Shown here piece after piece: positions 23,465-24,665 of a DNA stretch of 31,861 nt; within the stretch, counting starts at the first letter, position 1, and every line of letters starts with the position of its first letter. Source of the stretch: Candidatus Aenigmatarchaeota archaeon (GTDB lineage Archaea > EX4484-52); the NCBI GenBank assembly GCA_023137195.1, contig JAGLPV010000007.1:1-31861 (forward strand). The letters run 5' to 3'. The notes beneath the pieces are model-generated. The model saw only the letters and a program-made list of their open reading frames with translations. It was not told the origin of the DNA and did no database searches. The position numbers and the translations under genes were made by a program.

Positions 23465-24025
23465 ATGATAAAAATAAGATTTAATGGCAGAGGCGGACAG
23501 GGCGCAAAGACAGCCGCTCAATTACTGGTTGGAACAGCAATACAAAAAGGAAAGTACATACAGGCATTCCCTGAATACGGACCTGAAAGAAGAGGAGCTC
23601 CGGTAAAGGCATTTGCAAAAATAGACGACAAACCAATCGTTTCGCGCGAGCCGATAGACAACCCGGACGTTGTGGTTGTAATAGATGCAACCCTTTTAGA
23701 ATCGGAAAATATATGTAAAGGGCTGGATGAAAAAAAAGGAATTTTAATTATCAATACACCCAAATCAGGAGAAGAAATAAGAAAAGAGACGGGCGGTTTT
23801 GGAGGAAAAATATACACAGTAAATGCCTCTCATATTACAATGGAACTGCTTGGCATAAACCTGCCAAACACCCCGATGCTTGGAGCTTTACTAAAGATTA
23901 CAAACATAGTTGACATTAAAGTCCTTGAAGGAGTAATCAAATCCAAGTTTGAAAAAAAGATAGGAGAGAAAAAAACACAATTAAATATTGATGCAATACA
24001 AAGAGCATACGATGAAGTAAACTGA
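23465..24025 (+). CDS. porG: Pyruvate/2-oxoacid:ferredoxin oxidoreductase gamma subunit
   Basis: GRGGQGAKTAA, AFPEYGPERRGAPV, PNTPMLGA. Confidence 0.94.
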   Translation: MIKIRFNGRGGQGAKTAAQLLVGTAIQKGKYIQAFPEYGPERRGAPVKAFAKIDDKPIVSREPIDNPDVVVVIDATLLESENICKGLDEKKGILIINTPKSGEEIRKETGGFGGKIYTVNASHITMELLGINLPNTPMLGALLKITNIVDIKVLEGVIKSKFEKKIGEKKTQLNIDAIQRAYDEVN

Positions 24026-24030
24026 TTTTT

Positions 24031-24093
24031 TTGGCTATGATTTAGCTGCCCCAGTATGATTTGATGATTAAGAACTCAGGGTATATGAGCCAA
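24031..24093 (+). ncRNA. Box C/D-like 2'-O-methylation guide sRNA with variant boxes; D' guide complementary to the 23S rRNA P-loop
   Basis: Terminal stem TTGGC/GCCAA; C ATGATTT 24037-43, D' ATGA 24056-59, C' ATGATTA 24064-70, D ATGA 24085-88; guide AGCTGCCCCAGT pairs with ACUGGGGCGG. Confidence 0.75.
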
Positions 24094-24098
24094 GTAAT

Positions 24099-24665
24099 TT
24101 ATTTCCACTTTTTATACAGTTTATGCTCCATTCCAAAACATTCTATTATTTTCCCCACAAGATATTTTTCCATATCCTCTAAATTTTTCGGATCAAAATA
24201 ATACCCGACAACCGGCGGCACAATCCAGACATTCTGGATTCGAGATAGTTTCAGCATGTTTTCAAGATGAATTGAATTTAAAGGAGTTTCCCTCGGGACA
24301 ATCACAAGGTTTCTCTTGTGCTTTATGCAAACATCAGCACTTCTTGAAACAAGGTTATCCGCATACCCGTTTGCGATAGCAGATAAGCTTTTCATCGAGC
24401 AGGGAACCACAATCATCCCGTCTGTTTCAAATGATCCCGATGCAATTGAAGCTGAAAAATCATCTTCAGCATAGAGGAAATCCGCAGTTTTTTCTATTGT
24501 TTCAATTGTTTTTTTATAATCAGGCAAATCATATTTTAAGACAGTCTTTGCCGCATCAGTTATTATCAAATGAACTTCTGTTTTATTTTGCTTTAGAAGT
24601 TTAATTAACCTGACTGCAACAGGCATACAACTTGCGCCAGTAAGCGCAACAATTATTCTTCCAAT
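24099..24665 (-). CDS. ubiX: UbiX flavin prenyltransferase
   Basis: [11 protein letters not shown] lies upstream of the ORF-track ATG; [19 protein letters not shown] and VPRETP follow; start inferred at ATT 24665. Confidence 0.9.

Follow-up and report, generated by a model that had tools for sequence, protein, structure and literature searches.

Does an archaeal RNA whose four boxes all depart from the box C/D consensus act as a methylation guide, and is such a departure a property of its lineage? These questions are raised by a 63-nt unit at positions 24031-24093 (forward strand) of a 31,861-nt stretch of DNA (hereafter referred to as the window), which represents contig C55 of an archaeal genome (G000) of 1.42 Mb, 35% G+C and 84.8% completeness. 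The boxes of box C/D sRNAs are described as following the consensus RUGAUGA and CUGA (PMC3001065, PMC6009581), and in box C/D kink-turns (k-turns) the pair 3b:3n is normally U:U and the pair 4b:4n normally G:C (PMC5689011). In the window, the literal consensus is replaced by AUGAUUU/AUGA in the terminal motif and AUGAUUA/AUGA in the internal motif; position 6 of box C is U and position 1 of box D is A, and the two changes are complementary.

The original prediction, made from the letters of the window, regarded the unit as a box C/D sRNA with compensated boxes of a lineage-specific consensus, guiding 2'-O-methylation of G2251 in 23S rRNA and pointing to further hidden guides. The analysis presented here makes it very probable, as judged from comparative sequence data, that 24031-24093 (+) is a box C/D methylation-guide sRNA carrying U-A at 4b:4n twice, with a D' guide for Gm2251. 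No paper on the AUGAUU/AUGA variant in archaea, or on a survey of C/D sRNAs in DPANN, was found in the open-access text. The dominance of U-A in an archaeal lineage, together with an apparently minimal two-guide set in a genome (incomplete at present) in which neither FtsJ (above cut-off) nor SpoU was found, appears to be new.

Methods

The phylum to which the window belongs was represented by 42 species genomes, and in this sample phylum, class and order coincide. Orthologues of the sRNA were identified with a pattern consisting of the box C core, the P-loop guide and the box D' core (TGATNNNGCYGYCCCANNNTGA), boxes C' and D being left out of it. Mixed-family MAFFT alignments were found to be out of box register; the counts reported below rest on regular-expression parsing and fixed patterns, with no covariance model involved. 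As a comparator, the phylum holding the 'Ca. Iainarchaeum' record (121 genomes) was searched with the full-motif pattern described below, K and M being allowed at box C position 6 and box D position 1, respectively. The E. coli record employed for rRNA numbering is 2907 nt long and runs 3 ahead of the standard, starting before position 2058; its offset was set by the landmarks A2058 and A2451.

Results and discussion

Organisation of the locus

The unit reads TTGGC T ATGATTT AGCTGCCCCAGT ATGA TTTG ATGATTA AGAACTCAGGGTAT ATGA GCCAA. Its ends, TTGGC at 24031-24035 and GCCAA at 24089-24093, pair to form the terminal (C) stem of 5 bp, to which a T24030-G24094 wobble could add a sixth pair. The bulge base T24036 and box C (ATGATTT, AUGAUUU) occupy 24036-24043, the 3-nt bulge being made of T24036, A24037 and T24038; G24039-A24040 are the bases of the sheared G.A pairs, and T24042 is position 6 (k-turn 4b), a U where the consensus has G. 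The 12-nt D' guide AGCTGCCCCAGT follows at 24044-24055, and C24051 is its N+5 base, the fifth upstream of D'. Box D' (ATGA, AUGA) lies at 24056-24059, where A24056, the 4n base of the k-loop, replaces C and pairs with T24069 (4b) of box C' (ATGATTA, 24064-24070); the two boxes are separated by the linker TTTG at 24060-24063. The D guide AGAACTCAGGGTAT fills the spacer between C' and D at 24071-24084, and box D (ATGA) at 24085-24088 supplies A24085, the 4n base that pairs with T24042.

The terminal C/D boxes are therefore capable of forming a kink-turn, with a 3-nt bulge, tandem sheared G.A/A.G pairs, a U.U pair, a Watson-Crick pair and a canonical stem. The internal D'/C' boxes have the composition of a k-loop, with a D' spacer of 12 nt and a D spacer which, at 14 nt, lies outside the usual 12. 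The 63-nt length, the 5-bp stem, the 3-nt bulge, the two AUGAUU C boxes and the two AUGA D boxes were all read directly from the window as originally predicted, and a scan of the 1.42-Mb genome for the full ATGATT/ATGA/ATGATT/ATGA pattern returned a single match, the locus itself. No Rfam family reaches its gathering threshold for the sRNA, the best C/D-type match scoring 10.8 bits against a threshold of 70. The minimum-energy fold is ordinary (MFE z = -0.76), as is usual for C/D RNAs, which are folded by protein.

The sRNA occupies a 73-nt gap between the stops of two convergent genes. Upstream on the same strand lies a POR-gamma-like gene (Pfam POR, pyruvate/ketoisovalerate oxidoreductase; 23465-24025), and downstream, on the reverse strand, a flavoprotein ORF (24099-24626). 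Since the POR-gamma stop is only 5 nt ahead of the sRNA, an arrangement common to the congeneric genome G001, the POR-gamma gene may be a co-transcription partner, and the sRNA is probably released by cleavage near the 3' end of its transcript.

Conservation and covariation in the phylum

Identical copies of the sRNA are present in the public records L115, L207 and L170, and the lineage is labelled DPANN. The orthologue pattern matched 16 of the 42 phylum genomes, covering five of the eight families, while the reversed control gave no match. Box C reads ATGATT[AT] and box D' ATGA in all the 16 orthologues. In the 15 complete ones, all four variant boxes are present (ATGATT[AT] / ATGA / ATGATT[AT] / ATGA); the sixteenth lies near a contig end, and its C'-to-D half is unrecognisable in the remaining bases. 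The GA bases of the boxes are invariant among all the orthologues, and the D'-C' linkers vary in both sequence and length (4-9 nt).

The terminal stems change in a compensatory manner (TGGGC/GCCCA, TTGGC/GCCAA, CGGC/GCCG and CGCGGC/GCCGCG). In a 17-row alignment, the covariation of the stem together with 4b:4n was 0.394, compared with 0.161 +/- 0.036 for shuffled alignments, none of the 500 shuffles being as high; controls with slid partners gave 0.044-0.153. The 4b:4n column is paired in all 17 rows, as UA in 14 and as GC in 3. The gene context is conserved only inside the genus, the POR gene and the sRNA being located on different contigs in the other families; the sRNA is therefore an independent RNA gene and no by-product of its neighbours.

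In the genome G009, the 2775-nt contig C125 (L044 / L080) carries a complete P-loop sRNA flanked by partial copies, a partial copy of the 5' half about 110 nt upstream and one of the 3' half about 85 nt downstream; still further upstream, there is a tandem repeat of about 59 nt in three copies. This arrangement could be due to a rearrangement, the footprint of a mobile element or an assembly artefact.

Probable target of the D' guide

The window genome's own 23S rRNA gene ends at model position ~2008 of 2987 and, like its 16S gene, is cut at a contig end. As the 3' third is unassembled, the sequence of the P-loop was taken from two congeners, both of which have GCUGGGGCGGCA; another family has it as well. 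The D' guide forms 11 bp with it, 9 of them Watson-Crick and 2 G-U. Within spacer bases 2-11, the segment with which the substrate is described as pairing (PMC9670817), there are 9 Watson-Crick pairs and 1 G-U. Among 5.1 kb of rRNA, comprising the congener's full 23S and 16S and the genome's own partial rRNAs, the P-loop is the top match of the D' guide, with a score equalled by 7 of 300 shuffled guides.

After correction for the +3 offset, the base opposite N+5 maps to E. coli G2251. The assignment of C24051 to this nucleotide is thus borne out by the 11-bp pairing with the congeneric P-loop and the mapping to E. coli. The complementarity to the P-loop likewise holds, except that the P-loop flank differs from the ACUGGGGCGG assumed in the original prediction, so that N+1 is a U-G wobble. 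The commonest guide among the orthologues, AGCCGTCCCAGT, differs from that of the window at two positions, both being transitions (U-G <-> C-G) that keep the pairing; in the orthologue of the congener G001, an A.C mismatch at N+2 reduces the pairing to 9 bp.

A screen of the whole genome for half-motifs (box, 10-14 nt, box) complementary to rRNA gave as many real hits as reversed decoys (98 and 94, respectively, at scores of at least 20). Complementarity by itself is therefore weak evidence and counts only for candidates specified beforehand. Guides are generally expected to pair with rRNA or tRNA over about 10 bp and to place the target nucleotide at N+5; such a pairing was found for the D' guide and not for the D guide.

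The D guide

The top rRNA matches of the D guide are no better than those of shuffled sequences (151 of 300 as good). One candidate consists of 9 bp with UUACCCUGGG of 23S rRNA, which places N+5 at E. coli C2442, a base of helix 74; an alternative consists of 10 bp with position 316 of the genome's own 23S. In a sister family, the D guides (AGGGTAGCTT) are complementary to an overlapping rRNA segment, 3 nt upstream of the UUACCCUGGG candidate, lending some support by homology to C2442, which may be regarded as a weak candidate target. When four guides were compared with the 33 predicted tRNAs, the best matches did not exceed 9 bp. The absence of a firmly assignable target for this spacer, noted in the original prediction, is in agreement with these results.

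A second guide sRNA in the same genome

A structural scan identified a second box C/D sRNA outside the window, at G000:C1:139734-139794 on the reverse strand (L073:235-295), which reads TTTTGC G ATGATTA AAACATTTGAA CTGA AAA ATGATGA AGTGAACACCCT ATGA GCAAAA. The variant type of box recurs in its terminal motif (AUGAUUA/AUGA), the internal one (AUGAUGA/CUGA) being canonical. The D guide forms 11 bp (10 Watson-Crick) with the A-loop of 23S rRNA, with N+5 at U2552, and 3 of 300 shuffles were as good. A pattern for this sRNA, with one mismatch allowed, matched 30 of the 42 phylum genomes and gave no control match; box D is ATGA in 31 of the 32 matches, and the exception is without sRNA architecture. 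In the window genome, the D box overlaps the ATG of a downstream ORF.

The D' guide of the A-loop sRNA pairs with helix 69 in the other families that carry the sRNA (f2, f4, f6, f7 and f8), with N+5 at C1920; in the window's genus this guide has decayed. The copies in family f6 (L211-L219) carry an insertion of about 30 nt between D' and C', a part of which could form a hairpin, and their D' boxes are degenerate (CCGA, CGGA), yet pair with position 6 of C' (UGAGGA).

The expectation of more hidden guides was thus realised to the extent of this one additional sRNA; none beyond it was found in the 84.8%-complete genome. At a terminal stem of at least 5 bp, the genome scan showed neither a canonical RUGAUGA...CUGA unit nor a further convincing variant unit. 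Orthologues of three further sRNA families of the phylum (guides GATGGGCG, GGAGGTGAA and TTGCCGAGT) and of the helix 69 guide were likewise not found in it.

Bacterial stand-alone 2'-O-methyltransferases modify the same two nucleotides by protein only, RlmB (SpoU) forming Gm2251 and RlmE/RrmJ (FtsJ) forming Um2552, whereas the window genome has two guide RNAs for these sites. No protein of the genome scored above the Pfam cut-off for FtsJ/RrmJ (best 19.4 bits) and none matched SpoU_methylase, while both families were found in all the 14 control genomes. As the genome is only 84.8% complete, the missing FtsJ, SpoU and further guides are not taken as true absences.

Core proteins and the proposed mechanism

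The genome was found to encode fibrillarin (254 bits), Nop5 (126 bits) and L7Ae (93 bits), the three core proteins that the original prediction presupposed. The C-terminal domain of Nop5 is ordinary in comparison with solved Nop5 structures, and its GAEKALFRH motif is conserved.

The GA stem is described as consisting of box C positions 3-6 and the entire box D, with Nop5 contacting it chiefly via phosphates and a plain 4-bp duplex being able to substitute for it (PMC9670817). For its binding, L7Ae is reported to rely on the -1 pair as well as on the G.A pairs (PMC8413462). According to the account of Kuhn 2002 in PMC6461891, L7 binding is weakened when either position 6 of box C or position 1 of box D is changed alone, and a double compensating change restores it. 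Given this restoration and the phosphate contacts of Nop5, a U-A pair is expected to be tolerated, and the natural covariation agrees with this expectation.

In the mechanism proposed here, boxes C and D would form the terminal kink-turn and boxes C' and D' the internal k-loop, each keeping its U.U pair and both sheared G.A pairs and having U-A in place of G-C as the next pair. L7Ae would bind both motifs, and Nop5 and fibrillarin would assemble there. Pairing of the D' spacer with the P-loop would then direct fibrillarin to 2'-O-methylate the equivalent of E. coli G2251, while the 14-nt D spacer would be either an orphan or engaged in weak pairing near C2442.

The unit might instead be a k-turn RNA bound by L7Ae in a role other than methylation, such as 3'-end processing or stability of the POR-gamma mRNA, or a chaperone of rRNA folding that anneals to the P-loop. 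In archaea, k-turns of mRNAs are reported to be bound by L7Ae (PMC5539422, PMC6298567), the sRNA begins 5 nt past the POR-gamma stop in two congeneric genomes, and one of its two spacers is without a significant target. Such a role is nevertheless unlikely, as the sRNA lies away from the POR gene in other families and has the complete double-motif architecture of a guide with a 12-nt spacer, and as the fifth base from D' falls exactly at a universally methylated nucleotide, just as the sister sRNA places its N+5 at U2552, in a genome that keeps fibrillarin and Nop5.

Distribution of U-A at 4b:4n

The reading of the unit as a methylation guide leaves the question of how general its U-A pairs (box C position 6 : box D position 1), present in both motifs, are in the phylum. 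The 42 genomes were searched with full-motif patterns in which the first spacer was set to 12 nt; these miss sRNAs having 11- or 13-nt D' spacers, such as the second sRNA of the genome, and gave 46 U..A matches in 32 genomes (one control match) and 22 G..C matches in 20 genomes (no control match). As many as 38 of the U..A matches fall into three recognisable families (19, 11 and 8 members, manually sorted), and 21 of the G..C matches into conserved families (9, 5, 4 and 3), the remaining one being a singleton. The G..C matches include the P-loop guide of one genus, in which the terminal pair is G-C and the internal pair U-A. The uncompensated combinations are represented by four G..A singletons (one control match) and 12 U..C matches, of which six arise from a U..A sRNA being read 3 nt short, the rest being singletons or two near-identical hits from two genomes.

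Parsing of three families, restricted to copies having at least 3 terminal pairs, gave 45 distinct sRNAs; another two families were left out. All 45 have a Watson-Crick pair at 4b:4n in both motifs. At the terminal k-turn this pair is U-A in 38 and G-C in 7, and at the k-loop it is G-C in 23, U-A in 19, A-U in 2 and C-G in 1. Every terminal k-turn seen in the window's genus has U-A. In the comparator phylum, 114 matches were obtained along with 12 control matches; by hand count these comprise 82 G..C, 18 U..A, 8 U..C and 6 G..A. Most of the U..A rows lack conservation; one is a clear orthologue of a P-loop guide. In the Thermoprotei genome G043, which holds L166, two near-identical units (C174:2149-2203 and C191:2469-2522) of the form ATGATTA-12 nt-CTGA-...-ATGATGT-...-ATGA also have a U-A terminal pair, in a lineage that is otherwise canonical.

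Thus, U-A is strongly enriched in the phylum, being neither exclusive to it nor a replacement of G-C, and the 4b:4n position of the phylum behaves as a free Watson-Crick pair, for which U-A is the commonest state at terminal k-turns. The view of the boxes as compensated, with G-C changed to U-A twice, is strongly supported by the phylum-wide covariation and the rarity of uncompensated combinations. The idea of a lineage-specific box consensus is retained in a weaker form: as G-C is also present in the phylum, in canonical RUGAUGA/CUGA sRNAs, U-A is a lineage-enriched variant and no full switch of consensus.

A whole replacement of RUGAUGA/CUGA by AUGAUU/AUGA in the phylum would account for the uniform U-A of the terminal k-turns seen in the genus and for the excess of U..A over G..C motifs. 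It is contradicted by the 22 canonical motifs, which occur in conserved families with no control match, by the mixed P-loop guide of one genus, by the G-C k-loops of 23 of the 45 parsed sRNAs and by the AUGAUGA/CUGA inside the genome's own second sRNA, and is considered very unlikely. That short AT-rich motifs came together by chance in this intergenic spacer, with no function as RNA, can hardly be entertained, for though ATGA and ATGATT are common words at 35% G+C and 11 stem-flanked ATGATT...ATGA units occur in the genome, most of them inside ORFs, the sRNA is conserved in 16 of 42 genomes against no control matches, its stem changes are compensatory, its guide tracks the target and uncompensated box combinations are only at noise level.

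Comparison with known systems

P-loop (G2251) guides are also present in other archaea, including 'Ca. Iainarchaeum' (L156), Thermoprotei (L166) and Bathyarchaeia (L100, L101, L111 and L133). They share with the window sRNA the order of stem, C, 12-nt guide, D', linker, C', guide and D, the core of the D' guide (GCCGUCCCAG), the N+5 target and the presence of the core protein genes; the D guide of L156 is in addition related to that of the window sRNA. They differ from it in that position 6 of box C is G and position 1 of D/D' is C, where the window sRNA has U-A in both motifs. The canonical bases at these positions of box C and box D' were found in all six P-loop guides parsed from outside the phylum. 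The D spacer of the window sRNA also differs from theirs in its length of 14 nt and in its sequence, which is slid or replaced. The four Bathyarchaeia guides show a different peculiarity, as CAGA replaces CUGA at their end and box C is GAUGAUG; CAGA would turn the U.U pair 3b:3n into U-A, another lineage-typical box variant.

The closest parallel is provided by the nucleomorph of Guillardia theta, a reduced, AT-rich genome in which the snoRNAs GtNM-R12 to R14 carry exactly the same compensated boxes, AUGAUU with AUGA, a combination that the authors read as preserving the Watson-Crick pair of stem II (PMC6461891). These snoRNAs are eukaryotic (Snu13/Nop56/Nop58), have other targets and form a minority of the nucleomorph snoRNAs, and an internal U-A k-loop is not described for them; in contrast, the window sRNA has U-A in both motifs and represents the majority state of an archaeal phylum. 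Natural variation of archaeal boxes that defeats search models is also reported for Pyrobaculum, where covariance-model and consensus searches miss 3-11% of the C/D sRNA genes owing to non-canonical K-motifs (PMC6009581). That variation is scattered, with no systematic U-A at 4b:4n described in the text consulted, whereas in the window's phylum U-A is the lineage-wide preferred state.

Implications

For the fourth pair of the box C/D kink-turn, the phylum amounts to a natural test by covariation, in which a Watson-Crick pair is required and its identity is free. This agrees with the structural and mutational work and extends the nucleomorph case of AUGAUU/AUGA to archaea. Searches keyed to RUGAUGA/CUGA would miss both guides of the genome; a search model for DPANN and other reduced, AT-rich genomes should therefore allow any Watson-Crick pair at 4b:4n.

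The results also suggest that the complete C/D machinery is maintained in this small genome to serve very few guides, those of the P-loop and the A-loop, making the lineage a candidate minimal system for understanding why these two methylations are kept. Taken jointly, an RNP that is indifferent to the identity of 4b:4n, with U-A preferred, and a machinery kept for a near-minimal set of two sRNAs directed at Gm2251 and Um2552, both universally conserved methylations of the peptidyl-transferase centre, constitute a tentative proposal, which we regard as possible though somewhat doubtful. If it is true, consensus-based finders would systematically under-count guides in such lineages, and the two-sRNA set would be a natural minimal system of RNA-guided methylation for sites served elsewhere by stand-alone enzymes that were not found here.

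Observations on 23S rRNA genes

In a MAFFT alignment, the 23S genes of the genomes G002 (L064) and G005 (L063) were found to have GCUACUCCGCUGUCGG where E. coli 2494-2509 has GGCACCUCGAUGUCGG. The equivalent of the highly conserved A2503 is C in both, and C2499/U2500 are swapped to U/C; such changes are unusual in the peptidyl-transferase region. Within the genus, the 23S genes also exceed the model length by far. That of G002 (L064, on G002:C19) measures 3637 nt for 2987 model positions, and on G003:C16 (L065-L069) the model positions 1423-2143 span 1467 nt, which points to AT-rich insertions or introns.
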